The notes: generated by a model not told the origin, from the sequence alone. A DNA stretch of 64,000 nucleotides from Cyclobacteriaceae bacterium (GCA_039961455.1 JBDVJN010000097.1:1049-65048); one strand, 5' to 3'. Counted from the first letter of the stretch, positions 11,758 to 49,074 are shown. Numbers and translations are program-made.

Positions 11758-14397
11758 CTATTCTTCCTTGAGCCCTCTGGTTGGGTTTATAAGGCCTGCT
11801 CTCAATGATTCAAAACTAACCGTCACTAGAGAAATGACGGTGATGGTAATGCCTGCAATCAAATAGACATCCCAGGATATTCCTACAGCGTACTCAAAAT
11901 CTTCCAACCATCTACTCATGATCACCAATGAAAAAGGAATGGCAATAACCAAAGAAAGCACGATCATCTTCAGAAAATTGAAGGTAAGCAGGTTGAATAT
12001 GTTTTGAAGACTTGCACCAAATACCTTACGGATGCTGATCTCCTTACGGCGTTGTTCTACCATGAACGCTGATAGTCCAAATAAACCCAGACAGGCCACA
12101 ATAAGAGCCAAAACAGCAAAGGCTGCAAATACAATGGCTGCTCGAGTTACATTCTCATACATTATCTCGAATGAATCATCCAGGAATGTGTAGCGAATTG
12201 GCTGATTCGGCATTAAGTTGTCCCATTTTGCGGAGATGTCAGTAAGTGATTCTTTTAGATCTTCAGACTGAAGTTTGACAATCATTGCAGCGCCATTTGT
12301 TGTCGGACATAATGCCAATGGTTCTATTTCCATTTTCATTGACTCGAAATGAAAATCCTGAATCAATCCGATTACTGTCCAGGTGCCCAGATAATTCTCG
12401 ATACGAGCACCAATAGGTTCCTGCAAATTCAACTTGCTGGCCAATGCTTGATTAATGATGATGGAAGAGGAATCCTGAGCCATATCACCAAAATTTCTCC
12501 CTTCCAACAGGTTCATTCCCATCGTTTCTATATAATCCCCGTCAACGGTCCACCTCTGCGTCCCCACCTGCTTGTCCAGATCCTGTCTTCCTTCTAACCA
12601 AAACCCGTTGCCATCACGCTTCGTCCCAGATATGGGTATGAAATTGCTCAAGGAAGCGCTGCGAACGTTCGACAGGCTCTTCAGCTCATTCTTGAAAATA
12701 TCACTTTTCTCTCCCATCGTACTCACTCCCTGAATGACAACAACTTGTTCCCGGTCAAATCCGACGTCTTTGTTCAGAATAAAATCCAACTGCCGATAGA
12801 CGAGTAGCGCACTCACCATCAAGACAATGGATGCACTAAACTGAAAAACAACCATAACAGATCTGAGTCTTGAATTTTTACTACCCTGGCTCAGACTACT
12901 TTTGAGGACATCTACAGGCCGGAAGGCCGACAGATAAAACGAGGGATAAAGGCCTGAAAAAAATGTAATGAGCAAGATGAACCCCAAAACTCCTGGAATG
13001 AACCACCACGAGAGAAAAGGAATTGATAGAGATTTTTGAGCTACCTCGTTAAATGATGGTAGAAAAAGAGCAGCTAACGAGATCCCTATCGAAACGGAAA
13101 CAAAACAGATCAGAAAAGACTCGGTCAGAAACTGCTGTATAAGGTTTTTCCTTCGGGAGCCAAGTACTTTCCGTACTCCCACTTCTTTCGATCGATTTGC
13201 AGATTTGGCTGTAGAAAGGTTGATGAAATTGACGCAGGCCAGCAACAGTACTAAAGTTGCAATGGCTACAAAGAGCCAAACTATTTGAAGGTTTCCATGC
13301 TTTCCACTGTCATGGATATCATCGGATTTGAGATATATATCAGCGACGGGCTGCAGTATAAATGTATGATACTTTTTTGTGTCTTCTGCCTGGCTGGGGT
13401 TGTTTCTTTCCTGGTATTGGGCAACGTAATCCCGGATTGTGAGCAGCTGCTCTTCCAACTCTTCAGGGTTTGTTGTTGATTTAAGTCTAACATAAATATT
13501 GTAATTCCAGCAGCACCAATTTGTTTGTTCTCCCGGCCAAAATTCGTGTTGGTACAGACTAATTAAATAGTCGAAATCAATATGTGACTGAGAAGGAAAA
13601 TTTTTCATCACTCCTCCTACCACGTAAGGCTCCTCGAGGTTATCGTTCAGAATAATGGTTTGTCCCACCGGATCCTGATTCGGGAAATATTTTTGAGCCT
13701 TTCGCTCCGAAATCACTATGGATCTCGGTACTGAAAGAGCTTCCTCCTGATTTCCGTAAACCATCGGAATCTCGAGAATCGCCAACAGCTCGGGATCGGC
13801 GTATGCAAACCCTTCCTCATAGAAATTGGTTGGACTGCTCGAAGTTCGTAGCTGATTGTCACCCGATTGAAACCAGCCGCTTTGAGGTATTAATCGACCT
13901 ACCTTTTCTATCCCTGGGTAGTTCGAGCGAATAATCTCCGCGGCAGGGCCTGGAAATGATGTCCATTTTTCTTCTCCTTTGTAATCATTTGCAATTCGAT
14001 AAATCCTGTTTCCATTTTCATAATGCTTGTCGTAATTGAGCTCATCAAGAATAAAGAACGAGATTAGCGTGAATGCTGCAATGCCGATGGCGAAACCACC
14101 TACCTTGATTGTAGAAAACATTTTGTTTTTCTTTAGTGACCTCCAAGCCACTTTTAAGTAATTTCTTATCATAATTTGATTATCTAGTTTGGATGAAAAA
14201 CGTCTAATTGCAAAAGGTCGAAGGAATTTCAACGCATGCCATGCATACAGCTGGTTGGCTTTTTTGCGACCTAAGGTTGTGACCCATTCATCGTAAAATT
14301 CAAGTAAATCACCCTCGATCTCTTCGAACAGGTCATCCTTGCATACGACACGCAAAAGTTTGCTAATCCATTCGGGTGGATGTGGCCTCACATTCAT
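11758..14397 (-). CDS. MacB/FtsX-type permease with N-terminal cytoplasmic 'permease prefix' domain
   Basis: Prefix PPEWISKLLRVVCKDDLFEEIEGDLLEFY, pre-TM1 motif IRNYLKVAWRSLKKNK, and two FtsX 3-TM blocks with large loops. The start is taken at ATG 14397-14395, overlapping the PadR stop as ATGA. The ORF track opens at 14430. Confidence 0.85.
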   Translation of the reverse strand: MNVRPHPPEWISKLLRVVCKDDLFEEIEGDLLEFYDEWVTTLGRKKANQLYAWHALKFLRPFAIRRFSSKLDNQIMIRNYLKVAWRSLKKNKMFSTIKVGGFAIGIAAFTLISFFILDELNYDKHYENGNRIYRIANDYKGEEKWTSFPGPAAEIIRSNYPGIEKVGRLIPQSGWFQSGDNQLRTSSSPTNFYEEGFAYADPELLAILEIPMVYGNQEEALSVPRSIVISERKAQKYFPNQDPVGQTIILNDNLEEPYVVGGVMKNFPSQSHIDFDYLISLYQHEFWPGEQTNWCCWNYNIYVRLKSTTNPEELEEQLLTIRDYVAQYQERNNPSQAEDTKKYHTFILQPVADIYLKSDDIHDSGKHGNLQIVWLFVAIATLVLLLACVNFINLSTAKSANRSKEVGVRKVLGSRRKNLIQQFLTESFLICFVSVSIGISLAALFLPSFNEVAQKSLSIPFLSWWFIPGVLGFILLITFFSGLYPSFYLSAFRPVDVLKSSLSQGSKNSRLRSVMVVFQFSASIVLMVSALLVYRQLDFILNKDVGFDREQVVVIQGVSTMGEKSDIFKNELKSLSNVRSASLSNFIPISGTKRDGNGFWLEGRQDLDKQVGTQRWTVDGDYIETMGMNLLEGRNFGDMAQDSSSIIINQALASKLNLQEPIGARIENYLGTWTVIGLIQDFHFESMKMEIEPLALCPTTNGAAMIVKLQSEDLKESLTDISAKWDNLMPNQPIRYTFLDDSFEIMYENVTRAAIVFAAFAVLALIVACLGLFGLSAFMVEQRRKEISIRKVFGASLQNIFNLLTFNFLKMIVLSLVIAIPFSLVIMSRWLEDFEYAVGISWDVYLIAGITITVISLVTVSFESLRAGLINPTRGLKEE

Positions 14398-14723
14398 ATC
14401 GTAAGTGCATTCGGAGGTAATTGACTCCACAGAAGATTCCTAGCTTCCTGGATTTTTGTGAGCACCTGGCTACCAGAAGGCGTGACTTTAAAGTAGCGCT
14501 TTCGTCTCCCCCCTCGTTGAGCCGTTGCTCCCCCAAGGTGAGAAGTAACAAAACCCTTCTCCGCAAGTCTGTGTAGGGTCGCGTGAACAGCACTGACACT
14601 CATCTTACGGTCGAGTTGCTGATCTATCTCCTTTGTAATGGCTACTCCGTAAGCCTCTTCCTGTAGCATCACCACAATCAGAAGTACGACTTCTTCAAGT
14701 TCACCTATGTACACTTTTCTCAT
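14394..14723 (-). CDS. PadR-family transcriptional regulator
   Basis: 109 aa with winged-helix pattern GELEEVVLLIV..EEAYGVAITKEI..SVSAVHATLHRLAEKGFVTS..RRKRYFKVTPSG. Confidence 0.9.
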   Translation of the reverse strand: MRKVYIGELEEVVLLIVVMLQEEAYGVAITKEIDQQLDRKMSVSAVHATLHRLAEKGFVTSHLGGATAQRGGRRKRYFKVTPSGSQVLTKIQEARNLLWSQLPPNALTI

Positions 14724-14893
14724 TTCGAATTATTAGTTCAAATTATGTAGAACAAATAGTTTGCCAAAAAGGTAAGTTGCTGATTAGTTGAGATTTACGA
14801 AAATTTTAAGACTATCAGGTGTTCGGAGTTGCACACAAAATTGTACAGGAACGATCTCCAAGTAAAAGAAATTCTTAAAGATACTATTACATC

Positions 14894-14952
14894 GGCAAAA
14901 CCGAAACTAATTTATTTCGTATATATATTAGTTTGGCAAAATCGAAACTAAT
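14894..14952 (+). promoter_or_regulatory. direct and inverted repeats in the divergent PadR-PadR control region
   Basis: GGCAAAACCGAAACTAAT (14894-14911) and GGCAAAATCGAAACTAAT (14935-14952) match at 17 of 18 positions, and the second abuts the ATG at 14953. There is also an inverted pair, AAACTAAT (14904-11) and ATTAGTTT (14927-34). Confidence 0.4.
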
Positions 14953-15291
14953 ATGAAAGGGACATCACTGGGAGAATTTGAAGAGCTCTGTTTGCTAGCT
15001 GTTGGAATCTTGCAAGAAGATGCGTACGGCGTGTCTGTAAAAGAACAAGTAGAAAAACATACCGGACGTAAATCCACCCTTAGCACGATTCACTCTACCT
15101 TGATCCGTCTTGAGAAAAAGGGATTTCTGGAATCCAGGATGGGCGGGGCTACTGAGTTACGGGGTGGGCGAACAAAGCGAATTTTCCAGATTACCTCGCT
15201 TGGAAAAAAGTCTATGAATGAAGCTCGTGAACTGCGCAGTAAAATGTGGGATCATATCCCGGAAATTTTGTGGGAGGGAGGAGCCGTATGA
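14953..15291 (+). CDS. PadR-family transcriptional regulator
   Basis: 112 aa: GEFEELCLLAVGILQEDAYGVSVKEQV..LSTIHSTLIRLEKKGFLES..RTKRIFQITSLG. Confidence 0.9.
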   Translation: MKGTSLGEFEELCLLAVGILQEDAYGVSVKEQVEKHTGRKSTLSTIHSTLIRLEKKGFLESRMGGATELRGGRTKRIFQITSLGKKSMNEARELRSKMWDHIPEILWEGGAV

Positions 15292-17918
15292 AGAAGGACC
15301 AGCCACCTAAATGGATCATTCAACTGATCGAATGGTATTGTCATCCCGATTATTCAAAGGAGATCGTAGGTGACTTGCAAGAACTATTTTTCAAATGGAA
15401 GTCAGAAAAAGGTCCTTTCAGAGCTAGCATACTTTATGCCTTCAATGCTCTCCTTTTTGCCCAGACATACAATAGCAGGTTCTTACAGAATTCATCAAGA
15501 TCAAACGTAGTAATGATGATCAAGAATTACTTCATTGTATCAGTGCGCGTGCTAATGAGAAATAAGGTTACCTCTGCGATTAACATCTTAGGGTTAAGTC
15601 TGGGCTTATTAGGCTTCACTTACATTGCCATATTCATTGCCCGAGAACAAAGTTTTGACCAACACCACCAGGATCACGAAGATGTGTATCGACTGGTTCT
15701 CGGACCCCTGGATCAAAATATTGGGACGTATGCCATCACTGGGGCTGCTATGGCTCCAAGTCTACAACGAGAATACCCGGGTATAAGATCATTTGCCAGG
15801 TTTAGGCGTTTTCCGTCGCTTGTTTCTCAGGAAGACCAAATGTTTTATGAAAATGAGTTCTATTTCGCCGATTCATCTGTTTTCGATGTTTTCACTCATG
15901 AGTTCCTGGAAGGGAATGCAAAAGAGGCCTTGAAAGAACCAAATTCCCTGGTTATTACTGAGTCGCGGGCTTTAAAAATATTTGGATCAAGTAAAAATAT
16001 TGTTGGAAAAACACTCACGATCGACAATCAGCTCAATTATGTGATTACCGGTGTAATTGATGACGTTGAAAATAACTCGCACTTCAAGTATCACTATCTG
16101 GCTTCTATCGCCAGCATCCCAACGCACCACAATGAGCCATTACGGACGTACCAAATGACGTCTTGGTATGCGCACTATTTCTACACTTTTTTCAGACTTG
16201 AGAAAAATGCCGACCCGATACAGCTGGATCAGCAAATCAGATCTGCAGCCAAATACCACTCGGATCCTGATAACTATGAGTTATATGGAACCAACATGGG
16301 GCTTTTCCTACAGCCTCTATCTGAAATTCATCTGGATCCCCTTAGGGGAGAGATCAAACCGCAGGGGAATAAGGATACCTTGTCGATCCTTGGCATTATT
16401 GCCATTGTCATACTGGCGTTGGGTACATTTAATTACACCAATCTTACCACTGCCCAATCCATAAAGCGATCAAAAGAGGTCGGATTAAGAAAAACACTAG
16501 GGGCAGCCAAGGCACAGCTTATTCACCAATTTATTACAGAATCCGTCTTAATCACACTTGTTTCTTTGGGGATAGCAATTAGCATCGTGCAACTGACGCT
16601 TCCATACTTCAACAATCATTTCAACTCGCAACTAGCTATTTGGACGATAGAGACGCTTCCCATCCTGGTCTTTGTTTTTGTGTGTTCACTGGCGGCTGGT
16701 CTCTTTGGGGGTATGTACCCTGCCTTTGTTATTTCGTCTTACAAGCCAATCGCTATTTTCAGAGGGATTCAAAAAAATCAAAAAGGAATATCGTTCCGCA
16801 AATTGATAGTACTGGCTCAATTTGCCATTTCCATGATCTTAATTTCATCGACCATTATTATCTACCAGCAAGTAGCATTTATGAAAAATGCTAAGCTGGG
16901 AATAGATACTGAACAGATCATGGTCATTCCTACAAACGGTAATTCCAGCATCAACTCAACATTTGAATTGCTGAAAGAACGCCTGGAACAGCTACCGGAA
17001 GTATCACATGCGACTATTGCAGAGTTGACACCCGGGGATTCGTTTGGCGGCATCATTGCCAGGTTCGAAGGCATGCAAGACAATCGGAATTTTCCAACGA
17101 CGGGCGTCAGTTTTGATTATATGAAAACTTTCGGGCTTAAGCTACTAGCCGGAAGAGATTTTGATGTCACCATTTCATCTGACTCCACCGAACGAGCAAT
17201 TATCAACGAAACGCTGGCAAATGAATTGGGCTGGTCTCCAGGCGAGGCGATTGGAAAATCGTACGATTTTGGTGGTGACAACATCACTCCCGGACAGGTA
17301 ATTGGTGTAATGGAAGATTATCACTTTAACTCCCTCAAGTCACCCATTTTTCCCATTGTCCTGACGATCAGACCCGATTTTTATAATAAGATTTCTATTC
17401 GTCTGGCAGGAGGAAATATTGCCGATGGCGTTGAAAAAGTAAAAGAAATCTGGCAAAGTCAATATCCCAATTGGCCTTTTGAGTACTATTTTGCTGACGA
17501 CCATTTTTACAAAGAATATGAAGCTGAACAGAAATTTGGAGGGCTGATATTTTCATTTTCTTTAATGGCCCTTGTGATAGGAAGTTTTGGCCTGCTTGGA
17601 ATTGTTCTTATCGATACCCGTCATAGACTGAAGGAAATTTGCATTAGAAAGACCCTCGGTGCTGGTGTTTCCAATATCCTAAAGGTGTTGTCAGGGGAGT
17701 ATCTTAAAATAATTACTGTAAGTATTGCCATTAGCATCCCGCTCTCTGCATTGTTCGCACGCAATTGGCTTCAGGATTTCGCCTATCAGATGAAATCCTA
17801 CACATGGATAATTTTAAGTGCACCTTTCATAGTCGTTCTGGTGGCACTATTAACCGTAATTGTTCTGTCATTTAATGCTGCAAAAATTAATCCGGTAGAA
17901 ATTCTGCGAGATGAGTAG
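15288..17918 (+). CDS. MacB/FtsX-type permease with N-terminal 'permease prefix' domain
   Basis: ATG 15288 overlaps the PadR stop 15289-15291 (ATGA). Prefix PPKWIIQLIEWYCHPDYSKEIVGDLQELF, pre-TM1 motif IKNYFIVSVRVLMRNK, and two FtsX blocks. Confidence 0.85.
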   Translation: MKKDQPPKWIIQLIEWYCHPDYSKEIVGDLQELFFKWKSEKGPFRASILYAFNALLFAQTYNSRFLQNSSRSNVVMMIKNYFIVSVRVLMRNKVTSAINILGLSLGLLGFTYIAIFIAREQSFDQHHQDHEDVYRLVLGPLDQNIGTYAITGAAMAPSLQREYPGIRSFARFRRFPSLVSQEDQMFYENEFYFADSSVFDVFTHEFLEGNAKEALKEPNSLVITESRALKIFGSSKNIVGKTLTIDNQLNYVITGVIDDVENNSHFKYHYLASIASIPTHHNEPLRTYQMTSWYAHYFYTFFRLEKNADPIQLDQQIRSAAKYHSDPDNYELYGTNMGLFLQPLSEIHLDPLRGEIKPQGNKDTLSILGIIAIVILALGTFNYTNLTTAQSIKRSKEVGLRKTLGAAKAQLIHQFITESVLITLVSLGIAISIVQLTLPYFNNHFNSQLAIWTIETLPILVFVFVCSLAAGLFGGMYPAFVISSYKPIAIFRGIQKNQKGISFRKLIVLAQFAISMILISSTIIIYQQVAFMKNAKLGIDTEQIMVIPTNGNSSINSTFELLKERLEQLPEVSHATIAELTPGDSFGGIIARFEGMQDNRNFPTTGVSFDYMKTFGLKLLAGRDFDVTISSDSTERAIINETLANELGWSPGEAIGKSYDFGGDNITPGQVIGVMEDYHFNSLKSPIFPIVLTIRPDFYNKISIRLAGGNIADGVEKVKEIWQSQYPNWPFEYYFADDHFYKEYEAEQKFGGLIFSFSLMALVIGSFGLLGIVLIDTRHRLKEICIRKTLGAGVSNILKVLSGEYLKIITVSIAISIPLSALFARNWLQDFAYQMKSYTWIILSAPFIVVLVALLTVIVLSFNAAKINPVEILRDE

Positions 17919-18314: not shown

Positions 18315-19127
18315 TTACTTTTTCAACACGAAAGAGTCAAGGGATTTTCTATAATTCCTGCTCCCTTTAAGTTCTGTTCCATTTTGCATCATCACTGTGA
18401 AATCTCCATTGGTTCCAGGGTGGATTGACTCGATGAATTCGGAATTGATAATATACGATTTATGGGTCCGGATAAAATGCCTGGAATCACATATTGATTC
18501 GATTAATTTCATCCTATTATTAACAAGGAATAAGCGTTCATTTTCAAGATGAATTTTAACATATGCATCATATCCTTTAAAGTAGATCACCTCCGAAAGA
18601 GAAAAGAAATGAAGAATGCCATTTGATTTTATTGCTATTCTTTGATTGTACCCAAGTTTCTGATCCCTATTCCAGATAAGACTGTTTAGATCGGTTTTTT
18701 TGTTGGTAATAAACTGATTAGCAAGTTTCTGAATGAACTTACTGTTCTCTGAATTCTTTTCACCAATACTATCTTTTGCGTATTCAAGTGCCTTGAAGAG
18801 TCTTTCCTCTTTGTAAGGCTTAAGAAGGTAATCCAGGGCATGAAATTCAAAAGCCTTTACTGCAAATTTGTCATATGCTGTAATGAATATAACCCGCGGC
18901 ATTCGATGCTCATCAATATTAGCTAATACTTCAAATCCATTGATTTCTGGCATTTGTATATCCAATAGCACAATGTCCACAGGATCAGTATTGATTACTT
19001 CGATTGCCTCAAGACCATTGGAGCAGGTTCCTTGAAGGTCGATTTCAGGATCCAATTTAAGCGATTGAACCAGGCTTTTTCTTGCCTCTGGTTCGTCGTC
19101 TACAACAAGCACATTATACTGTCTCAT
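18315..19127 (-). CDS. LytR/AlgR-family response regulator (REC + LytTR DNA-binding domain)
   Basis: REC domain (VLVVDDEPEARK..DIVLLDIQMPEINGFEV..ITAYDKFAVKAFE) and C-terminal LytTR domain (FIRTHKSYIIN). Confidence 0.9.
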   Translation of the reverse strand: MRQYNVLVVDDEPEARKSLVQSLKLDPEIDLQGTCSNGLEAIEVINTDPVDIVLLDIQMPEINGFEVLANIDEHRMPRVIFITAYDKFAVKAFEFHALDYLLKPYKEERLFKALEYAKDSIGEKNSENSKFIQKLANQFITNKKTDLNSLIWNRDQKLGYNQRIAIKSNGILHFFSLSEVIYFKGYDAYVKIHLENERLFLVNNRMKLIESICDSRHFIRTHKSYIINSEFIESIHPGTNGDFTVMMQNGTELKGSRNYRKSLDSFVLKK

Positions 19128-20157
19128 GATGGATTGGAATTTTTAATGTCGCTATTGTCATGCTTTCTTCTAACCGTATTTCAATTTTAGCATTTGAATT
19201 AAACAGCTTATCGAGGCGTTCTTCTACATTTTTTAGTCCAATTCCATAACCAATGTTGTTTTCCATATCTGTAGATCGAGGATCGGTGTTTTTAATCACA
19301 ATTATCAGTTGGTCATCAAAACATGCAGCATTTATGATAATTTCAGATGAACCGATATACTTGGAAATTCCATGTTTAACTGCATTTTCTACGATAGGTT
19401 GTAGAATTAGATTTGGAACCATCACTTCTTTTGCTGAAGGATCAATATCATAGATTACAGTTAATCGGTCTTTAAATCTGACGGATTCAATTTCGAGGTA
19501 CTGCCGAACAAATTCAATTTCTTCTTCAAGAGTAACAAACTGGGTCTTTTTCTCATCTAGAATTGTCCTTAGGAGTCCACTAAAGCCATTAATGACCTCA
19601 ATTGCATCGGAGTTCCTTTTGGAACGTACCAGAGCTGCTACAGTGTTTAATGTGTTGAATAGAAAATGAGGTTCAAATTGCCTTCGAAGCGTTTCTAAAT
19701 GTGATTTTGAAAGCTGTGCCTCAAGCTCTGCAGCGAGTTTCAGCTTTGAAAGGTACTTTCTGTAGATGTCAAATGTTAGAAGATAACCTACCATGACCCA
19801 GGCAACGATTGTGCTTTCCACATAATAGAAAGGTCTTGAGCTTACCAAAAAACCCATGAAATCAACCTGAATGGTCGGATCAATAGAAAACTGAATCGAA
19901 AAAGTGAGAATGGTCTTTAGAGACCCTACAACAAAACCTGAAATAATAAGAATTAGTAAATTGGACCCAGTCCTAAATTGACCCGACCATTCAGATATTT
20001 TTACAAATGGAATGGTAAGTAAAAGCCAAACCAAAATTCCAGGGATGTAGTAATACAGGACATAATCTTCACCTCTGTCCCAGATTGATTTCTTAACAAC
20101 ATCCAGACCTAGATATAATATCCAAAAGGCGCCTGCTAAAAGAAGCTTTAATTTCAA
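19114..20157 (-). CDS. LytS/YehU-type sensor histidine kinase, membrane-embedded with no large extracytoplasmic domain
   Basis: Four or five N-terminal TM segments, His_kinase block QFEPHFLFNTLNTV, and HATPase (ILQPIVENAVKHG..GIGLKNVEERL). TTG (20157-20155) is the only possible start. It overlaps the RR gene by 14 nt. Confidence 0.85.
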   Translation of the reverse strand: MKLKLLLAGAFWILYLGLDVVKKSIWDRGEDYVLYYYIPGILVWLLLTIPFVKISEWSGQFRTGSNLLILIISGFVVGSLKTILTFSIQFSIDPTIQVDFMGFLVSSRPFYYVESTIVAWVMVGYLLTFDIYRKYLSKLKLAAELEAQLSKSHLETLRRQFEPHFLFNTLNTVAALVRSKRNSDAIEVINGFSGLLRTILDEKKTQFVTLEEEIEFVRQYLEIESVRFKDRLTVIYDIDPSAKEVMVPNLILQPIVENAVKHGISKYIGSSEIIINAACFDDQLIIVIKNTDPRSTDMENNIGYGIGLKNVEERLDKLFNSNAKIEIRLEESMTIATLKIPIHHETV

Positions 20158-21662: not shown

Positions 21663-24104
21663 ATGTTCAAGAATTATTTCCTTATTTGTTTTCGAAACAT
21701 CAGAAAAAACAAAGTTTTTTCATTTCTAAATATCGCAGGGCTTTCTATCGGGATAGCTTCTTGCCTCACGATTCTTCAATACACCACTTTTGAATCCCGC
21801 TACGATCAGTTTCACAAAAACAAGGATCGGGTTTTCAGAATCGATGCAGAATACTATGGCAATGGCGAATACGAAGGTCGATCAAATAATAGTGCCTACA
21901 AATTGCCTGGGACTATAAAAGAAACGGTGGCTGGAGTTTCCCACTTTACTAGAACGCACCTGCAGTATGGAGGCGCAGTAATTACCTATGGAGAGGGGGA
22001 GCTCAGAAAACAGTTCTTCGAGGAGGACCATAAGTTGTATTATGTGGATCAGGACTTTTTCGACCTGTTTGATTATACCCTTATGGATGGAAATCGCGCA
22101 ACACTTCTGACGGAACCCATGTCGATTGTGATGACTCGATCGATGGTTGAGAAGTACATGCCAGATGAGACACAACCGATAGGCAAGTTCCTTGATCTGG
22201 ATGGCGGCTGGTATCCAGGAACTTACAAGATCACGGGTATTCTGGATGACTTGCCTGGTAATTCCATCTACTCTTTTGATTTTCTAATGCCCATTTCTGA
22301 TTTGCTAAAAAATGAGCAGTACCAGGACGATGATGGATGGGGTTGGGAGAATTTTACCAGCTATATCCTGTTGGAAGAGGGGGCAGATAAGGAGCAGGTA
22401 TTCGCACAAGCCAAAGACCTATTGAATGATAGAAATAGCGAAGAACATGAAACGTCAAATTCTTCTACTAATCTGGTCTTCACTGCGCTGACAGACATAC
22501 ATCTCAATGATCTGAGCGACGAGGCAGAAGCTGGAACTACAAGTCAAACCCTTTTCTTCTTTGTCATTATTGCTGTTTTTATCATCAGTATTGCTTGGCT
22601 CAACTACATCAACCTGGCTACCGCGCAAGCGCTGAAAAGAGCGAAAGAAGTAGGGATCAGGAAAGCTGTGGGCGCAGGAAAGAAACATCTCATTGCACAA
22701 TTCATGCTGGAAGCTTTTATCATCAATGGGGTTGCGTTCCTTATTGCCCTCATCATTAGCTATTTAAGCCTACCCCTTCTGAGCCGCGTGCTTGATAAAG
22801 AATTGTCGTTCGGAACCGGGATCGAGCCCATCTTCCAGGTTTACATCGTTCTGGCTTTTGTGATTGGTACACTAGTGAGTGGATTTTACCCTGCGCTAGT
22901 TCTTTCCAGGTTCAAACCTGCTGTGGTTGTGAAGGGCACTTCGTTCGGAGGAGAGCAGAAATTTGGTTTGCGACAGGGACTGGTTGTGCTACAGCTGGTG
23001 ATTGGTGTGTTTCTGATCTCCGGAACATTGGCCGTATTCAAGCAGCTAACTTTCATGAAAAGTAGAGACCTGGGAATGGATGTTGAGCATGTGCTATCCA
23101 TGCGGGGACCCCGAGTATATGACGATCGCGAAGAGCGTAACAATCAGGTGAAAGCTTTTAAAACCAAACTTGCCTCCATTCCAGGAATCTCTGAAATTGC
23201 AGGCTCTGCCGCGGTTCCTGGTGGTGATTTTAACTGGGGAACCAGTATGCGACCAGAAGGTCGGGATGAGTCTGAAGCCGAATCCGTTAAAATGATGTGG
23301 GTGGATGCCAATTTTCACAACACCTATGGGATGGAACTGATCGCGGGTCGCTTTCATCAGGAAGATCTCAAAGGTGAATCAGCTCAGGTGGTCGTAAATG
23401 AGACGCTGGTAAAGACCTTTAGTATGGGGACACCCGAAGAGGCCGTCGGTCAGAAAATGAAAGTTGGAGATCGTGCCTTTCTAATTATTGGGGTACTGAA
23501 GGACTATCACTGGTATTCGTTACGGCAAGAGAAAGAGCCGCTTTTGCTCAACTATGCAAGTATCGGCACAAGCAATATCTCTGTAAAAATAATTTCAGAG
23601 GACGTCCGAACCACCATGGACCAGATCGAAGCAGAGTATGTGGCTCACTTCCCGAACAATCCATTTGACTTCTATTTCATGGACGATTACTTCGACAGAC
23701 AGTATCAATCTGATCAGCAGTTTGGACAAATATTCAGCACGTTTTCTGTCATAGCGATCATTATCGCATGCCTTGGACTGTTTGGCCTGGCTTCCTTTAC
23801 GCTTGGCTTGAGGGTAAAAGAGATAGGTGTTCGGAAAGTGCTGGGTGCCTCGATCAAATCGATCCTGATGATGATTTACAAAGACTACATGAAGCTGATC
23901 TTGATCGCCTCTGCTGTCGGACTTCCAGCGATATATTATATCATCGACTACTGGCTGGAAAACTATGCCTATCGTATCGCTATCTCGGCGGACTTGTTCG
24001 TTGTACCGGTCGTGTTGTTGGTTGTGATTGCTTTGGGAACGGTGAGTTATCAATCTATTCGTGCCGCAGTAGCCAATCCAATTTCGAGTTTACGTACCGA
24101 GTGA
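21663..24104 (+). CDS. MacB/FtsX-type permease without prefix domain
   Basis: 813 aa. It starts directly at the pre-TM1 motif MFKNYFLICFRNIRKNKVFS and has two FtsX blocks. No PadR gene is adjacent. Confidence 0.85.
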   Translation: MFKNYFLICFRNIRKNKVFSFLNIAGLSIGIASCLTILQYTTFESRYDQFHKNKDRVFRIDAEYYGNGEYEGRSNNSAYKLPGTIKETVAGVSHFTRTHLQYGGAVITYGEGELRKQFFEEDHKLYYVDQDFFDLFDYTLMDGNRATLLTEPMSIVMTRSMVEKYMPDETQPIGKFLDLDGGWYPGTYKITGILDDLPGNSIYSFDFLMPISDLLKNEQYQDDDGWGWENFTSYILLEEGADKEQVFAQAKDLLNDRNSEEHETSNSSTNLVFTALTDIHLNDLSDEAEAGTTSQTLFFFVIIAVFIISIAWLNYINLATAQALKRAKEVGIRKAVGAGKKHLIAQFMLEAFIINGVAFLIALIISYLSLPLLSRVLDKELSFGTGIEPIFQVYIVLAFVIGTLVSGFYPALVLSRFKPAVVVKGTSFGGEQKFGLRQGLVVLQLVIGVFLISGTLAVFKQLTFMKSRDLGMDVEHVLSMRGPRVYDDREERNNQVKAFKTKLASIPGISEIAGSAAVPGGDFNWGTSMRPEGRDESEAESVKMMWVDANFHNTYGMELIAGRFHQEDLKGESAQVVVNETLVKTFSMGTPEEAVGQKMKVGDRAFLIIGVLKDYHWYSLRQEKEPLLLNYASIGTSNISVKIISEDVRTTMDQIEAEYVAHFPNNPFDFYFMDDYFDRQYQSDQQFGQIFSTFSVIAIIIACLGLFGLASFTLGLRVKEIGVRKVLGASIKSILMMIYKDYMKLILIASAVGLPAIYYIIDYWLENYAYRIAISADLFVVPVVLLVVIALGTVSYQSIRAAVANPISSLRTE

Positions 24105-39769: not shown

Positions 39770-40330
39770 ATGTATATTCTCAAAGGAGGGATGAGTGTAT
39801 CTTTGGACTTGCGGATGGAAGTCAGTAAGTCTTTTACTAAAAACGACCTTAGAGAGGTGTACGACCTGTATTTCGAGAGCCTCAGGGGCTTCTTGTATTA
39901 CAAGACAGGTGACATAGATCTTTCTGAAGATTTGGTACAGGAAGTGTTTATTAAACTCTGGGAGAAAAGGGATAGTATTAAAAAGGATACTGTAAAGAGT
40001 TTGTTGTATACCATGAGTACTAATTTGATGATTAATCACTTCAAACATAAACAGGTGGTGATGACCCATCAAGGTGATGTAGTCGCGCAGAACAGGACAG
40101 AATTCCATTCCCCTCAGTTTGTGTTAGAGGAAAAGGAATTTGAAAAGAAGCTCAACGACGTAATTGAATCATTACCGGAAGGATGTAGGGAGGTGTTTTT
40201 AATGAATAGAATCGATAAATTGAAATACGAGGAGATTGCCGAACGACTTGAATTGAGCGTAAAAGCAATTGAAAAGCGAATGAGCAAAGCAATTGGATTG
40301 ATAAAGGAGCAATTGGGCGTAAAGATCTAA
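39770..40330 (+). CDS. ECF sigma factor (FecI-like)
   Basis: Region 2 (DLVQEVFIKLWEK) and region 4 (LPEGCREVFLMNRIDKLKYEEIAERLELSVKAIEKRMSKA). An alternative start at 39815 is likely. Confidence 0.85.
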   Translation: MYILKGGMSVSLDLRMEVSKSFTKNDLREVYDLYFESLRGFLYYKTGDIDLSEDLVQEVFIKLWEKRDSIKKDTVKSLLYTMSTNLMINHFKHKQVVMTHQGDVVAQNRTEFHSPQFVLEEKEFEKKLNDVIESLPEGCREVFLMNRIDKLKYEEIAERLELSVKAIEKRMSKAIGLIKEQLGVKI

Positions 40331-41211
40331 TGAGTGATTTAGAAAAATATCGTGATTTGATAAACCATGAGGGAGATGACCTTAAGGATGAGGTTGCTGA
40401 TTTTCTAAAAAAATCAAGCTCTCTTAAGGTACCTTCCAAAAGAAGCAAAGAAGATATTTGGGCTAGTATTTCAGACGGCATTGATGAACAAGAGGAGTCA
40501 ACCAGCAAGCAATCAGTTTGGCGTTTGATCGGCATAGCGGCTTCAATTGCATTGATTGCTACTTTTTCAGTACTTTTTTTCAATCAACCTGTACAAATTG
40601 AAGTTTTGACCGCATCAGGTGAAACATCAACTCAAACACTACCTGACGGATCACAAGTGATCCTAAACGCTTCTTCGATGATTTCCTACTCTTCGGATTG
40701 GGATCGTGAGTTGACGCTGAATGGAGAAGCTTTTTTTGAGGTAACTAAGGGAGAGAAGTTTCTTGTCAAGACCGATTTCGGAACTGTCGAGGTTTTAGGT
40801 ACTTCCTTCAATGTTTTCGCCAGAGACGGCGACTTCAATGTGGCCTGCAAGACAGGAAAAGTAAGAGTATCTGTACCCGAACGTTCTATTGTAGAAGAAA
40901 TTGAGCCTGGACAGGCAATAGCGGTCAATAGTGACACTGTCAAATTAGTATTCAGAGTTCCCGAGTCAATGGGGAACTGGCAAAAGGGTGAGTTCTATTT
41001 TGATCACCAACCAATCAGTCAGGTTTTTGAGGAGCTGCAGCGGCAATTCAGCATTGAGATAAAATTTGATGGATCCGATGAGCAGGAATTTTCAGGATAC
41101 TTCACCAACAAGAATCTGGAAAATGCTCTTCAGATGGTGTGTCTTCCGCTGGGTCTGGAATATCAAAAAACCGGACAAAGTACTTTCGCCATTAGTAAGA
41201 GTGCGGAATAA
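40330..41211 (+). CDS. FecR-family anti-sigma/sensor protein
   Basis: TAATG overlap with the sigma gene, one TM segment, FecR core (LPDGSQVILNASS..NGEAFFEV) and a C-terminal FecR_C-like part. Confidence 0.85.
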   Translation: MSDLEKYRDLINHEGDDLKDEVADFLKKSSSLKVPSKRSKEDIWASISDGIDEQEESTSKQSVWRLIGIAASIALIATFSVLFFNQPVQIEVLTASGETSTQTLPDGSQVILNASSMISYSSDWDRELTLNGEAFFEVTKGEKFLVKTDFGTVEVLGTSFNVFARDGDFNVACKTGKVRVSVPERSIVEEIEPGQAIAVNSDTVKLVFRVPESMGNWQKGEFYFDHQPISQVFEELQRQFSIEIKFDGSDEQEFSGYFTNKNLENALQMVCLPLGLEYQKTGQSTFAISKSAE

Positions 41212-41220
41212 ATTTCGATC

Positions 41221-43890
41221 ATGAGGAGTATTATTCTTTTCATCTTGATTCTTCTGTCCAGCTCATTATTAGGTCAAAAAAAGTTCGATTTTGATTTTAC
41301 AGGAAAGACACTTTTTGATGCAGTTGAGCAACTATCTAAAAAGCACAAATTCAAGTTTTCGTATAATCCTGAAGCACTTAAGACTCACAAGTTAGGCGGA
41401 AGAATAAGAGCCAATTCCGATGCCGAGTTACTTAGCAAAGTCTTCGAAGATTTACCATTTAAAATCCAACTCTCTGACGGAGTCTATCTAGTCATTCCGC
41501 GAAAAATCAAACGAACTCCGCTATCTCTAGCTGGTAAAGTATACGACAAAGACACAGGGGAACCACTGGCTTTTGCTCATGTTCAAACTTCTCAAAAAGG
41601 CACAATTAGCAATCAGGATGGCAGATTTAATCTTCCACCTCGAGAGGACACCATCACAATTCAGGTCAGTTACATAGGGTACAAGGACTTGCAGTTGAAG
41701 GTAGAGCCAGATAGAGAAGATGTCGCTCTAAATCTTGAGTTAAATCCGCGCGAACTTCAAGAGGTTATTCTAAATACGTCACAGCTTGGTGAGCTTTCAG
41801 GCAAACCAAGCTTCTTTAGTCTTAATCCAAGTCAATTTAACGCATTACCAACATTGGGTGAAACAGACGTATTCAAGTCGATTCAAATGCTCCCAGGAGT
41901 ACGGGCAACAGATGAGACAGCTTCAGGACTTTCAGTTCGAGGAGGCACACCTTCCCAAAATTTAGTAACGATGGATGGTTTTACGCTCTACCATCTAGAT
42001 CATTTTTTTGGAATTTTCTCCACTTTAAATCCCAACGTCATTAACAACGTCAGCCTTTACAAGGGTGGATTTGGACCAGAATATGGAGGAAGAATTTCTT
42101 CAGTGGTAGATGTGTCAGGCAAGACAGGGTCCAAGGAAGGATTTTCAGCAAAAGCCGGAGTTAATCTCTTATCGTTCAATGGCATGATTGAAACTCCGAT
42201 TGGCAGGAAGTCATCTTTTCTTCTTGGCGTGAGGCAATCATTTACAGGAGTCCTTAATTCCGACCTCTTTAAAGACTTTTTATCATCCAACCGCGAATCT
42301 TTCATAGAATCAATAAATCCAGAGGTAGCCACTCTGCAATTCCAACCCTCCCTAAATTTCTATGATATCAATGGAAAATTCCAACATAGGTTTAGTCCAT
42401 CCTCCATTCTTGATATTAATCTATACCTAAGTGAGGATTTCTATTCGGCGGAGTTCACCGAAACCGATGACTTTTCCGGTTTCAACATTGAAGATAGAGC
42501 TACATGGGAGAATAAAGGAATCAGCTTAAATTGGAAACTAAATCCAAACTCAAACTGGCACAGCAATTTCACCATTGCTGCTTCGGAGTTTTTTGATGAG
42601 CAACGATTGGATATTAATCAGACCTTTTTCCAAGATGTTGCTTTTCAAGAAAGCGATACCATTTTCAGTAACTCGGAAGTCACACTCTCAAATTTTGGTG
42701 TGCAAAGTTCGGTCTCTGATGTTACGATCAAATCTGATCATGAGATAGATCTCCCGAATGATGATCTTATCAAAGCAGGAATTGAGCTCAATGCAATATC
42801 CACTAGTTACGATGCCGATCAGTTTTTCTTTCAAAATTTCAGTGAGGAGATCGTCATCCGAAATGACTTGATTCTAGAATCGGCAATAGCCAGCATTCAC
42901 GGCAGTTATCAATTTGAGGGTTCCAACATAAGGTCGAGTATTGGAACTCGTGGAACATTTTATGAACCAACGGGTAAGTGGTTCCTAGAACCAAGATTTG
43001 ATTTGAATTTCAAAATCAATGAAAACTTCAACCTAAAGGGAGCTGCATCACTTCATCATCAATTTGTAAATCAAACCTCCTTGTCGCTATTCAGCAGTGA
43101 TGACAAATTCTATTGGGTGCTGGCAGATGATGCGTCCATTCCAATTCTAAAAAGTTCTCATATGATCTTTGGTGCAAACTATTCATTAGGAAAATGGTCC
43201 ATTGATTTGGAATATTACCGAAAAAATACTGCCGGAATCTTAGAGAATCTTTTTGCCATTAGAAGTCCTGGAAATTTGGACACTCAGAGTTTGAACAGTT
43301 CCATCGACTCTCTATCTTTTGACACACAAATCAATCCTTCAGGGGAAAACATTTCTGAAGGAATTGACCTCTTTGTCAAATTTAGAGATGAGACTTTCAC
43401 CTCGTGGCTTAGCTACTCTCTTGGTGCGTCAAATAATAAATTCTCATACATTGATCAAAACAATCCGTTTCCCTCCAATCAGGATCAACGCCATGAAATC
43501 AATTTGGTCAGTATTCTTAAATTAAACAACTGGGAGCTATCAAGCTCATTAATCTACGGTTCAGGAAGGCCTTACACTACACCAATTCTATTAGGTGATT
43601 CGGCACGTTACTACGATGAAACGAAAGTCAATAGCTTGCGACTACCCTCCTATTTTCGGGTGGATTTATCTGCAAAATATTCATTTCCCATTGGCAAATC
43701 TCAGTGTGAGGTAGGGATAACATTTTTCAATGTATTTGACAAAGTCAACGTAAAGTCTCGAAGATTTACGGAGCAATTCGTCTTCGACGAACAAAACGAT
43801 GCCATCACCGAGGATCAAGTCCGATTGGTTGCTATCGACACTCGCTTACTAGGTTTTACGCCCAATTTCTTTTTCAATATTCGATTCTAG
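41221..43890 (+). CDS. TonB-dependent transducer (STN signalling domain + CarboxypepD_reg + plug + barrel)
   Basis: N-terminal STN-like segment (TLFDAVEQLSKKHKFKFSYNPE..), LAGKVYDKDTGEPLAFAHVQ, plug LGETDVFKSIQMLPGV..GLSVRGG, and C-terminal FFFNIRF. Confidence 0.85.
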   Translation: MRSIILFILILLSSSLLGQKKFDFDFTGKTLFDAVEQLSKKHKFKFSYNPEALKTHKLGGRIRANSDAELLSKVFEDLPFKIQLSDGVYLVIPRKIKRTPLSLAGKVYDKDTGEPLAFAHVQTSQKGTISNQDGRFNLPPREDTITIQVSYIGYKDLQLKVEPDREDVALNLELNPRELQEVILNTSQLGELSGKPSFFSLNPSQFNALPTLGETDVFKSIQMLPGVRATDETASGLSVRGGTPSQNLVTMDGFTLYHLDHFFGIFSTLNPNVINNVSLYKGGFGPEYGGRISSVVDVSGKTGSKEGFSAKAGVNLLSFNGMIETPIGRKSSFLLGVRQSFTGVLNSDLFKDFLSSNRESFIESINPEVATLQFQPSLNFYDINGKFQHRFSPSSILDINLYLSEDFYSAEFTETDDFSGFNIEDRATWENKGISLNWKLNPNSNWHSNFTIAASEFFDEQRLDINQTFFQDVAFQESDTIFSNSEVTLSNFGVQSSVSDVTIKSDHEIDLPNDDLIKAGIELNAISTSYDADQFFFQNFSEEIVIRNDLILESAIASIHGSYQFEGSNIRSSIGTRGTFYEPTGKWFLEPRFDLNFKINENFNLKGAASLHHQFVNQTSLSLFSSDDKFYWVLADDASIPILKSSHMIFGANYSLGKWSIDLEYYRKNTAGILENLFAIRSPGNLDTQSLNSSIDSLSFDTQINPSGENISEGIDLFVKFRDETFTSWLSYSLGASNNKFSYIDQNNPFPSNQDQRHEINLVSILKLNNWELSSSLIYGSGRPYTTPILLGDSARYYDETKVNSLRLPSYFRVDLSAKYSFPIGKSQCEVGITFFNVFDKVNVKSRRFTEQFVFDEQNDAITEDQVRLVAIDTRLLGFTPNFFFNIRF

Positions 43891-46320: not shown

Positions 46321-46423
46321 CAATTTCTACAAAAACGAAACATATGAATCTTCCTTCTCGTTGAACTGAATTACCTTATCAAATTCGACAAAAACGAAAG
46401 AAATTTGTAACTTCTTCTTGGAA
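46321..46423 (+). promoter_or_regulatory. duplicated leader/control module (box A + box B) of permease paralogue 1
   Basis: ACAAAAACGAAA occurs at 46329-40 and 46388-99. Block 46380-46423 is identical over 44 nt to 49156-49199. Confidence 0.45.
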
Positions 46424-46452: not shown

Positions 46453-49074
46453 ATGAAAGAGAAACTTCAGCCGCCAAGTTGGATTTACAAACTAGTTGAA
46501 CGCTTTTGTGATCCCTATTTATGGGAGGGTATTAGTGGTGATCTCGAAGAAGTATTTCATGAAAACGTCGAATACAGAGGTATTCACAAAGCTCGTTGGA
46601 TTTACTTATTTCAATCAATGGGTTTTTTGAGAAACACTTTTAGACAAAAAACTAAAACGCTATCAACCATGAGATCCATGTGGCTTAACTATTTCCTTAC
46701 CGCCTATCGTTCACTTCGAAGAAACAAGGCATTCTTCCTCATCAACCTTACTGGATTAATAGTAGCCGTCAGTTGCTCACTATTCGCTTTGATATACATC
46801 AATGACGAAGTTCAGTACGACAAATTTCATACCGACATCGATCAAATTCATCGCCTTTACAAACACTTTAAATATGATGCGGAGGGAGTTGACGAATTAA
46901 CTTTCGAAACTTCTGGTATGATGGGTCCAACAATGGTGGAAGAATACCCGGAGGTAGAATCAGTCGTGCGAATAAACCCAAGGAGTTATCCTGTTATTCT
47001 TTCGTACGAGAAAAAAAATATAGTAACAGAAAAGCTGTTCGTCTCAGATTCCACATTTTTTGATTTCTTCGATTTCAAAGTTATGTCTGGAAGAAAGTCG
47101 GAATTGCTAACCGCCCCTTCCTCCATCGTGCTGAGTAATTCGCTGGCCAAATCCATATTTGGAGACGTAGATCCAATTGGCAAAGTGGTTCTTGGCCTCA
47201 ATGATTTGAATTTCACTGTGACAGGCACTTTTCAGGACCCACCAAGACAATCTTCAATTCAATGTAACGCCGTGGTTTCCTGGACAACAACGGTCGCTGG
47301 CGTGGGACCGGTGAGCTATGGATGGATGAACAATTGGAGAACTCAGGGAATCCACACATTTGTGAAACTTGCTAGGGGAGCTTCGGCGGAAGGGCTTCTG
47401 CAGAAACTGCCTGAAATGATGCAAAAACACATGCCGGAAAGGGCAGACAGATACTTCCTTAAACTACTACCATTCAATAAAATGTACCTGTCCAGCGATG
47501 CAATCAATGCTAAGGAAGGAATGAATTACGGAAGCATAACTTTCTTATTGATATTGGGAGGTTCTGCATTCCTGGTATTTGTCATTGCCAGTGTGAACTA
47601 CATCAACTCGTCACTTTCAAGAGCAGCGCAAACCCAAGTGGAAGTTGGTATCAGAAAAACAATGGGCTCTACTCGAAAACAATTAATGGGGCGCTTTGTC
47701 GCAGAAACTTTAGTGAATGCCTTGGCGGCCTCCATTGTTGGATTAGCACTCCTACTCATATTTCTACCCAGCATAAATACTGTCAGCGGCAAAGAACTCC
47801 CATTAGAATTACTCTACTCGCCTCTAGCTCTTTTTTCCCTCCTCGGATTCATCTTCGGCATTTGTCTGATCGTTGGCGTGTACCCTGCCTTCGTTCTTTC
47901 CTCTCCACCAGTATCATCAATTCTTAAGTCATCTTCTGGACAGGTGGGTTCCACCGGTTGGTTCAGAAAGTCATTGCTAACGCTACAATACTTCATATCC
48001 ATTCTACTGCTCATCTGTACTGCGCTTATTAATCAGCAGACCTACTACATGGAAAACAAGTCGCTCGGATTTGACAAAGAAGGCCTTCTTGTAATCGACA
48101 TCGATAATGAAGTAAACCAAAAAGTGGAGGTATTGGAATCAAAATTATTGAGCCATCCAAACATACTGTCGGTGTCTACCTCCAGTTCTGCAATTGGAGG
48201 TGGATCCTACACCGATTCAGTATATCCTGTGGGATTTACTGGCGAGATGTCTTCTCGATTCTATAAAGTAGATGCTGACTTTTTCGATACTTATGGACTT
48301 GCAGCAAATGTTGGAAGAACATTCATCAAAAATTCAATAGCAGACACAAACAATATAATCGTCAATCAGGCCTGGATAGATTTTGTCGGTTGGGATGATC
48401 CTATTGGAAAAAAAGTGAGGATGAGTGATGAAAACAGTGAAACCTATAATGTGATTGGAGTGGTGAATGATTTCCACATACACTCTTTGGCAACATCAGA
48501 AATTGAGCCCATGATCCTCACGCTGAACACTGGAGAATCATACAATTCCACGGTCCGAATCGGCCAGGGGAATCTTCAAGAGACCATTGACCACATTGAT
48601 GAAACCTGGAGTAGTCTTGCAGATAGAACTCCACTTAATTTCTATTTCGTGGATCAATGGTTCAACGAAAACTATCAGAAAGAGAATCAGCTATTGAAAA
48701 TCGCGAATACCTATTCCACGATCAGCATTATACTATGCGGACTAGGTCTTTTCAGCCTTACGGCACTCCTTCTTCAGCAAAGAACAAAAGAAATTAGCAT
48801 CCGCAAAGTACTTGGTGCTTCCATGACCTCCATACTCTCGCTCATAAACAGACAGTTTGTATTAATCATCCTGGTAAGTTTTGCGGTAGCCACTCCGGTA
48901 GCCTATTTCCTTATATCTAAATGGTTGGATCAATTCTCATATAGCATTTCAATGACCTTGTTCCCATTCCTTTTTTCTGGAATTATTGTTCTACTGGTGA
49001 GCATCCTGATTGTGAGTTTCCTGGCAATCAAATCTGCAAATGTTAATCCTTCGACAAATCTGAGAGCGGAGTAA
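46453..49074 (+). CDS. MacB/FtsX-type permease with N-terminal 'permease prefix' domain
   Basis: Prefix PPSWIYKLVERFCDPYLWEGISGDLEEVF, pre-TM1 motif WLNYFLTAYRSLRRNK, and two FtsX blocks. Confidence 0.85.
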   Translation: MKEKLQPPSWIYKLVERFCDPYLWEGISGDLEEVFHENVEYRGIHKARWIYLFQSMGFLRNTFRQKTKTLSTMRSMWLNYFLTAYRSLRRNKAFFLINLTGLIVAVSCSLFALIYINDEVQYDKFHTDIDQIHRLYKHFKYDAEGVDELTFETSGMMGPTMVEEYPEVESVVRINPRSYPVILSYEKKNIVTEKLFVSDSTFFDFFDFKVMSGRKSELLTAPSSIVLSNSLAKSIFGDVDPIGKVVLGLNDLNFTVTGTFQDPPRQSSIQCNAVVSWTTTVAGVGPVSYGWMNNWRTQGIHTFVKLARGASAEGLLQKLPEMMQKHMPERADRYFLKLLPFNKMYLSSDAINAKEGMNYGSITFLLILGGSAFLVFVIASVNYINSSLSRAAQTQVEVGIRKTMGSTRKQLMGRFVAETLVNALAASIVGLALLLIFLPSINTVSGKELPLELLYSPLALFSLLGFIFGICLIVGVYPAFVLSSPPVSSILKSSSGQVGSTGWFRKSLLTLQYFISILLLICTALINQQTYYMENKSLGFDKEGLLVIDIDNEVNQKVEVLESKLLSHPNILSVSTSSSAIGGGSYTDSVYPVGFTGEMSSRFYKVDADFFDTYGLAANVGRTFIKNSIADTNNIIVNQAWIDFVGWDDPIGKKVRMSDENSETYNVIGVVNDFHIHSLATSEIEPMILTLNTGESYNSTVRIGQGNLQETIDHIDETWSSLADRTPLNFYFVDQWFNENYQKENQLLKIANTYSTISIILCGLGLFSLTALLLQQRTKEISIRKVLGASMTSILSLINRQFVLIILVSFAVATPVAYFLISKWLDQFSYSISMTLFPFLFSGIIVLLVSILIVSFLAIKSANVNPSTNLRAE

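Follow-up and report, generated by a model that had tools for sequence, protein, structure and literature searches.

The stretch of Cyclobacteriaceae DNA analyzed here (64 kb, referred to below as the window) contains two divergent two-gene units, each of which encodes a repressor of the PadR family and a large permease that carries an N-terminal prefix domain (PadR-A and PermA on the minus strand, PadR-B and PermB on the plus strand, with a 229-bp spacer between them; Table 1). In both units the stop codon of the padR gene is fused to the start codon of the permease gene, a claim of the original prediction that can be read directly at the 2 junctions. The plus-strand TCAT at 14394-14397 is ATGA on the minus strand and combines the PadR-A stop codon TGA with the PermA start codon ATG, and in the ATGA at 15288-15291 (plus strand) the PadR-B stop codon overlaps the PermB start codon. 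Longer permease open reading frames (ORFs) are possible from upstream GTG codons at 14430 (PermA) and 15246 (PermB), but we preferred the ATG starts because homologues start 3-9 residues ahead of the PP motif of the prefix. The GTG at 15246 would lengthen the PermB ORF by 42 nt into the PadR-B gene, and in a close relative a public gene call (P0001, 117 aa) fuses the prefix to upstream sequence that continues the permease frame and reads across the 3' end of the padR gene region. From these 2 observations, automatic annotation may mis-start these permeases. A third unit consists of PermD, PermE and PadR-C in this order, the padR gene lying downstream and beginning 28 nt past the PermE stop codon. 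The window had been credited with 4 PadR-linked permeases, which is correct for PermA, PermB and PermE; PermD is tied to the downstream PadR-C only via PermE. The fifth permease, PermC, has neither a prefix nor a PadR neighbour and was used as internal control.

Table 1. Genes, domains, motifs and candidate regulatory elements of the PadR-permease units and their paralogues (positions in the window)
Feature	Position	Strand	Description
PermA	11758-14397	-	879 aa, duplicated Type VII ABC permease, prefix followed by MacB_PCD-FtsX twice, 8 transmembrane helices predicted
PermA second coupling-helix motif, RKEISIRKVFGA	12013-12048	-	between transmembrane helices 6 and 7
PermA first coupling-helix motif, SKEVGVRKVLGS	13156-13191	-	situated between TM helix 2 and TM helix 3
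PermA prefix domain	14200-14397	-	residues 1-66, predicted cytoplasmic three-helix bundle; NF038404 above cutoff
PadR-A	14394-14723	-	109 aa, PadR-family winged-helix repressor
Candidate shared divergent promoter/operator region	14724-14952		229-bp spacer with repeat families
Candidate PadR-A operator/promoter footprint, GGCAAACTATTTGTTCTACAT (gene orientation)	14742-14769	-	putative function
Candidate PadR-B operator, inverted repeat ATATTAGTTT-N10-AAACTAATAT	14925-14954	+	putative function
PadR-B	14953-15291	+	112 aa, PadR-family repressor
PermB	15288-17918	+	876 aa, prefix-bearing duplicated permease
PermB prefix	15288-15485	+	
PermB coupling motifs	16470-16505 and 17628-17663	+	
PermC	21663-24104	+	813 aa, prefix-less paralogue, internal control
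Two direct ACAAAAACGAAA repeats, candidate operator of third unit	46329-46341 and 46388-46400	+	upstream of PermD; putative function
PermD	46453-49074	+	873 aa, prefix-bearing; prefix 46453-46650
PermE	49222-51840	+	872 aa, prefix-bearing; prefix 49222-49419
PadR-C	51869-52201	+	110 aa, last gene of third unit

The N-terminal extensions of PermA, PermB, PermD and PermE match the NCBIfam model NF038404 (perm_prefix_2, "permease prefix domain 2") with scores of 72.1, 43.9, 50.8 and 46.8 bits, respectively, against a cutoff of 35, and PermC gave no match to this model. The prefix is already curated as an NCBIfam domain and thus is not new. A cytoplasmic extension exists as had been noticed, with the first transmembrane helix (TM1) beginning near residue 92 in the structural model described below, and its length compared with the prefix-less paralogues is 77-78 aa. 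AlphaFold places the helices of the PermA prefix at residues 9-18, 21-42 and 44-57 (pLDDT 84-91). The signature reported as common to the extensions of the 4 permeases is real: P7, P8, W10, I11, C19, I27, G29, D30, L31 and E33 are invariant in the 4 copies of the window. In an alignment of 150 family members, most of these positions (P7, P8, W10, C19, G29, D30, L31 and E33) and also G43, A47, Y51 and F58 are 87-100% conserved, the exceptions being column 11, which is mostly A (0.57), and I27 (only 0.49). Since it is conserved over the 150 members, PPxW..C..GDLxE..G..A..Y..F.RP is a signature of the family and not a product of chance. A word-index search with an 85-aa prefix alignment, a method that is weak for short queries, returned 3 matches, and an exhaustive profile search was used instead. 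This search detected 2062 clusters at E <= 1e-3 and 401 at E <= 1e-10. Full-length matches were all 855-897 aa long, and the 10 matches of intermediate length that were scanned all run on into MacB_PCD. Judging from the best 150 matches, perm_prefix_2 looks specific to the MacB_PCD/FtsX permease family. The prefix also matched Kunitz_BPTI and UxaC, but below cutoffs (E 0.007-0.2), and we took these matches for noise. PDB sequence searches with the perm_prefix_2 profile and with that of a perm_prefix_1-like domain (see below) produced noise only, and a Foldseek search with a single-sequence AlphaFold model of residues 1-101 (pLDDT 71.5) gave no PDB match with E < 2, a result that is uninformative for a small helical domain.

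The association between the prefix and PadR was analyzed in the window and 80 related loci from one-genome-per-species contigs. These were scanned with hidden Markov models (HMMs) built from the PadRs, the prefixes and the permease bodies of the window, and with an ATPase HMM built from motif-defined ATPases of the family. When only permeases with a visible N-terminus were considered, 13/22 prefix-bearing permeases (12 loci) versus 1/255 prefix-less ones (73 loci) were located within 400 nt of a padR gene (Fisher's exact p = 1e-15). The sole prefix-less permease near a padR gene lies next to a PadR-permease unit, on its upstream side, and 2 more prefix-bearing permeases sit in a tandem array with a PadR. 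Counting arrays with a visible 5' boundary, a PadR was present in 12 of the 13 arrays with prefix and in 0/51 of the prefix-less arrays. Moreover, PadR is encoded directly upstream of the permease in 6/6 orthologue contexts, which were fetched independently and carry precomputed Pfam annotation; their junctions are a 4-bp overlap, as in the window, in L081, L082 and L085, an 11-bp overlap in L086, and abutting in L083 and L084. The check put forward with the original prediction, an enrichment of PadR beside prefix-bearing permeases, thus came out clearly positive. This indicates that the prefix-PadR link is specific.

Within the linked pairs, the divergence of PadR follows that of the prefix but not that of the permease body. 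Among 16 PadR-permease pairs, PadR distances correlated with prefix distances with r = 0.76 and with body distances with r = 0.29. A partial Mantel test gave r = 0.735 for PadR and prefix given the body (p = 0.0002), whereas the reverse test, PadR and body given the prefix, gave r = -0.08 and was not significant. A second type of prefix is also encoded beside PadR. In L024 and L053 a different N-terminal domain, with a weak match to NF038403 (perm_prefix_1), is found directly behind a PadR of another subtype. In L016 (706-3058) a padR gene of this other subtype (706-1035) is followed by 3 consecutive genes that share the perm_prefix_1-like helical domain (ExxDH...E...G..F..A...F) on unrelated bodies with multiple transmembrane helices, and no Pfam domain was found in these 3 prefix-bearing proteins or in their homologues. 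Profile comparison of perm_prefix_2 with the perm_prefix_1-like domain by hhalign returned a probability of 0.5-0.6% in 2 runs, the second with 9 extra homologues. An alignment of the 2 domains by eye (D30/D31, G43/G44, F58/F58) was merely suggestive and was rejected as evidence.

The permease bodies were assigned by domain content and by fold. MacB_PCD and FtsX are each present twice in all 5 permeases of the window (Pfam), and the best full-length NCBIfam model is TIGR03434 (ADOP), with sub-threshold scores of 228-339 bits (PermA 339) against a cutoff of 622.3. The AlphaFold model of PermA, built on a 120-sequence alignment (pLDDT 87.6, pTM 0.80), shows the N-terminal three-helix bundle, a basic amphipathic helix (70-90) running into TM1 (92-120), 8 TM helices, 2 periplasmic domains and 2 short cytoplasmic helices, one after TM2 (408-413) and the other after TM6 (784-792). 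Its top solved fold match is Escherichia coli YbbP (9GE6/9GE7, E = 2e-22), and the further matches include MacB, LolCDE, BceAB and HrtBA (range E 1e-22 to 1e-8; 7TCG and 8G3A among them). Like YbbP of the YbbAP-TesA system (PMC12646458), PermA is a single polypeptide with 2 MacB-like modules, 2 periplasmic Porter/Sabre domains and 2 coupling helices. The 2 proteins differ in that the TM helices number 10 in YbbP, with a linker pair, versus 8 in the PermA prediction, and in that ybbA adjoins ybbP and YbbP has neither an N-terminal prefix nor a PadR partner. In YbbAP, the short helices equivalent to those of PermA are the coupling helices that dock 2 YbbA ATPases (PMC12646458). Each half of the permease contains one coupling motif, KEVGxRKxLG and KEIxIRKxxGA, in which E405, G407, K410 and G413 of the first and R783, E786, R790, G794 and A795 of the second are invariant among 120 homologues.

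ADOP-like traits of these permeases are the internal duplication, the copy number (5 in the window, 316 permease segments in the window plus the 80 loci) and the rarity of adjacent ATPases. ADOP and the Acidobacterial PadR (TIGR03433) are linked to each other in the TIGRFAMs descriptions. The window units share with that pair the duplicated MacB_PCD-FtsX architecture, the usual lack of an adjacent ATPase, the large paralogous families and the PadR neighbour, but they score far below the curated cutoffs and belong to a Bacteroidota (Cytophagales-like) lineage and not to Acidobacteria. ADOP permeases are described in the literature as abundant in Bacteroidota genomes and of unknown function. Altogether, the permeases of the window are ADOP-like duplicated ABC (ATP-binding cassette) permeases of Type VII with YbbP as nearest solved fold. 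The MacB/FtsX topology assigned to the approximately 880-aa proteins in the original prediction is therefore confirmed by the duplicated Pfam domains and the fold matches. Its view of the large extracytoplasmic loops as sensor domains is not, since by fold comparison the loops are what MacB_PCD regularly contributes to Type VII ABC permeases.

All 3 PadR proteins of the window pass the Pfam cutoff for PF03551 (27), with 41.3 (PadR-A), 33.2 (PadR-B) and 29.2 (PadR-C) bits. Their closest NCBIfam models are TIGR03433 (26-35 bits versus a cutoff of 102) or NF053635 (Rv3488 family, the top model for PadR-B), all below cutoff, and solved PadR relatives in the PDB include 5DYM, LmrR (3F8B) and Rv3488 (5ZHC). 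The prefix_2-linked PadRs all fall in one subclade, and most, not all, of them have a C-terminal W-x-x-[ILV]-P tail, which is present in PadR-A. A proteolytic relay of the BlaR1/BlaI type, considered on a borderline Penicillinase_R/BlaI match of PadR-A, was rejected because the permease contains no protease motif or domain.

The promoter region of each PadR contains repeats that, judged from the sequence, are candidate operators. Over 45 bp, the sequence ahead of PadR-A is almost unchanged in front of its L081 orthologue (64% identity), and both regions include the element ATTTGTTCTACA, which is palindromic in L084. The inverted repeat ATATTAGTTT-N10-AAACTAATAT has 10-nt arms that are 100% complementary and overlaps the PadR-B ATG, and 3/6 of the window's matches to ATTAGTTT fall within 14904-14952. 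The ACAAAAACGAAA repeats of the third unit resemble GGCAAAAyCGAAAC upstream of PadR-B. Other units carry repeats of their own, as expected of paralogue-specific operators. A sigma-70 promoter scan found fewer sites than in shuffled controls and was disregarded, as the model is not applicable to Bacteroidota promoters.

The arrangement of a PadR beside a membrane protein with an N-terminal helical domain has a published precedent. PMC11237479 (mSystems 2024, Ravi, Aravind et al.) defines a domain named HAAS (HTH-associated alpha-helical signalling) and its dyad with PadR, with ACP_2125/ACO32024.1 of Acidobacterium capsulatum as an example. The mechanism offered there, which is a published proposal, is that HAAS would pass a conformational change on to PadR, which would then be released; the dyad would in this way offer an alternative to two-component systems. 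The statement in the original prediction that no mechanism had been described for this architecture consequently does not hold: the same architecture and model had been proposed in that paper, and the prefix is a curated domain. Our literature search on permease prefix domains and on PadR beside MacB/FtsX-like permeases in Acidobacteria and Bacteroidetes found nothing beyond this PSP/HAAS paper. The window units share with the dyad a cytoplasmic N-terminal domain of three helices, predicted in the case of the prefix, an obligatory PadR neighbour and the same proposed relay logic; the prefix is N-terminal to an 8-TM permease and stands beside a stand-alone PadR in the array and orthologue counts given above. 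The HAAS families of Pfam (DUF1700, DUF1129 and DUF1048) gave no match to the prefix even at E <= 10. The kinked-helix GxP of HAAS is absent in perm_prefix_2, which has a conserved G43 at the turn between helices 2 and 3 and P61 after helix 3, and HAAS is promiscuous, whereas perm_prefix_2 was seen only on FtsX-type permeases. By this comparison, perm_prefix_2 appears to resemble the HAAS-PadR dyad in logic, and its membership of the HAAS superfamily is not established.

Two further systems are similar in part. In Listeria, the PadR proteins of LftR-LftS and LstR-Lmo0421 autoregulate small operons for a HAAS-type partner, which is a separate protein or part of a membrane protein; they differ from the window units in belonging to Firmicutes and in their partner domains (DUF1048, FtsW/RodA body). 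In BceAB-BceRS, an FtsX/MacB-fold permease of related fold doubles as the sensor that sets the expression of its own operon. BceB, however, differs from PermA in its 10 TM helices and its single large loop, and it acts via a membrane-bound histidine kinase, while the output of the window units is presumed to be a PadR one-component system. No histidine kinase is encoded in either two-gene unit, and the nearby LytTR/PF06580 pair lies on the other strand and differs in type from BceS.

We propose, at roughly even odds, that each unit is an autoregulated PadR operon in which the prefix and the co-encoded PadR are cognate partners and the state of the permease is relayed to PadR. Each unit is a self-contained operon, probably repressed by its PadR, which would bind the repeats in its own promoter region. 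A LolD/MacB-type ATPase encoded elsewhere would power the permease, which would act by mechanotransmission on an envelope-associated compound. The conformational or occupancy state of the permease would pass to PadR through the prefix by physical contact, either by capture or by release, so that expression would follow demand. The net effect would be a kinase-free analogue of BceAB flux sensing, with the logic of the published HAAS-PadR dyad. The specific association, the co-divergence and the existence of a second prefix type with its own PadR support the part of the original idea that ties the prefix to PadR, while its role as contact surface is putative; the concept itself had been published before, and the absence of an ATPase, which the original prediction had treated as special, is no peculiarity of these units. 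Several points weigh against our proposal. Binding of PadR to the prefix is a hypothesis. In the approximately 64 kb to which the search was limited, no ATPase of the window's organism was located. The remaining 7 prefix-bearing permeases have no PadR in view; they form 2 tandem arrays cut by locus ends (L029 and L066). Because the padR gene is contiguous with the prefix-coding DNA, recombination in blocks or gene conversion affecting the permease bodies, and not co-adaptation, could have caused the co-divergence. Since perm_prefix_2 occurs only on MacB_PCD/FtsX permeases among the best 150 matches, it could be a permease-specific accessory, for instance for ATPase docking. Finally, LftR repression of lieAB in Listeria is independent of the HAAS-type partner LftS, so that a relay is hypothetical even there.

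Some of these points would fit a conventional ligand-sensing repressor encoded with its transporter, which we consider possible, if on the unlikely side. PadR would then bind the transported or toxic compound itself and autoregulate the operon, the role of the prefix would be unrelated to PadR (ATPase docking or regulation, or assembly), and co-occurrence would reflect inheritance as a block. Characterised PadR proteins such as LmrR do bind ligands directly. The single subclade of prefix_2-linked PadRs is compatible with a single ancestral fusion, the restriction of perm_prefix_2 to these permeases speaks for this reading as well, and recombination breakpoints inside the permease gene could produce the Mantel result. 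However, the second prefix type is unrelated in sequence, is tied to its own type of PadR and in L016 is found on unrelated membrane proteins behind a PadR. This favours a functional link between prefix and PadR over inertia. The complete lack of PadR in the 51 prefix-less arrays also speaks against the conventional repressor.

The ATPase question bears on a second alternative, in which the permeases with a prefix no longer transport or couple to an ATPase and serve purely as receptors whose periplasmic domains sense and whose prefix sequesters PadR. Consistent with such a receptor, no ABC ATPase was found in the window, either by motif scan or with the family HMM, or within 8 kb in the 6 orthologue contexts. 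Moreover, an ATPase gene is located close upstream (<=900 nt) in only 1/13 prefix arrays versus 12/51 prefix-less arrays. However, 24/25 prefix-less singletons also have no adjacent ATPase, so the missing ATPase is a trait of the family and is not prefix-specific. Tandem arrays, with up to 10 genes, are common among prefix-less permeases, and a single ATPase directly upstream heads 9 of the 18 such arrays that have at least 4 genes and a visible start (12/51 overall). Therefore, one ATPase serving many permeases appears to be normal in this family. The coupling motifs of both halves are kept as often in prefix-bearing permeases as in prefix-less paralogues, including the ATPase-headed ones. 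In L074 (1-5463, minus strand), from a metagenome-assembled genome labelled Eubacteriales, an HlyD-like adaptor, an ABC ATPase, a PadR and a divergent prefix_2 permease are encoded in one co-directional cluster. No other prefix-permease with an ATPase encoded nearby was seen. This cluster and the conserved coupling helices make an ATPase encoded in trans more likely than an ATPase-independent receptor, which we regard as improbable. The statement that the permeases have no ATPase partner is thus accurate for the window but does not distinguish them.

The ATPases that head the arrays are of the LolD/MacB type. Arrays of 6-10 prefix-less genes (approximately 2.4 kb each) fill the whole 22-kb loci L005, L006, L008, L014, L020, L038, L039 and L079. 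In L013 (9247-9929) the array-heading ATPase lies in 2 overlapping frames (HMM positions 1-114 and 112-222), a frameshift or a pseudogene, and the array is otherwise intact. The adaptor of L074 consists of 2 adjacent ORFs and is possibly frameshifted as well.

The alternative upstream GTG starts and the merging of the PadR C-terminus with the prefix in P0001 might suggest an annotation artefact or a chance juxtaposition, with upstream sequence wrongly called as the extension and no meaning in the neighbouring PadR. This reading is effectively refuted by the 2062 prefix clusters, the curated NCBIfam model, the confident fold and the extreme adjacency statistics. A bolder form of our proposal, which we put forward as speculative and rather doubtful, is that perm_prefix_2 is an independent, non-HAAS PadR-docking domain for Type VII permeases and that the mechanotransmission permease itself acts as a kinase-free sensor of flux or occupancy, capturing and releasing the one-component repressor. 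The PadR-linked copies might in this case be "sentinels" that also set the expression of the large prefix-less ATPase-headed arrays.

Other genes for signalling across the envelope are encoded nearby. A LytTR response regulator and a PF06580 histidine kinase (18315-20157, minus strand) adjoin the PadR-permease unit and are convergent with PermB. The same pairing is present beside orthologous units, on both sides in L081 (4719-7447 and 13083-14725) and in L086 (10690-12332), and in these 2 loci a CarboxypepD_reg/OMP_b-brl_3 outer-membrane protein is encoded near it. The LytTR/PF06580 pair and the surroundings of the PadR-permease units may represent a conserved envelope-response neighbourhood. 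PermC, a singleton without an ATPase, is flanked upstream by an opposite-strand DUF2911/TPR gene and the LytTR two-component pair, a possible regulator of PermC. Further downstream (39770-43890, plus strand) we noted, by sequence appearance, an ECF sigma factor (39770-40330), a FecR-like anti-sigma factor (40330-41211) and a CarboxypepD_reg/TonB-dependent receptor-like protein (41221-43890), a cluster that resembles a typical trans-envelope signalling cassette of Bacteroidota.

The architecture and the signalling hypothesis are already published, and the units described here are further examples of it, with a prefix type that is possibly non-homologous. New for Bacteroidota are the clean dichotomy between prefix-bearing and prefix-less permeases with respect to PadR and the co-divergence of PadR with the prefix specifically. 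Also new is the contrast between PadR-linked prefix units, isolated without a local ATPase, and prefix-less arrays without PadR, about a quarter of which (half of the large ones) lie behind one ATPase gene. The duplicated orphan permeases of the ADOP type, of which a genome can encode tens of copies, make up some of the largest paralogous families in Bacteroidota and Acidobacteria that are unexplained. If the prefix couples the state of the permease to PadR, these units would represent a kinase-free counterpart of BceAB flux sensing and would provide a first experimental handle on the ADOP family; as a compact two-gene module, they make the published HAAS-PadR idea directly testable.

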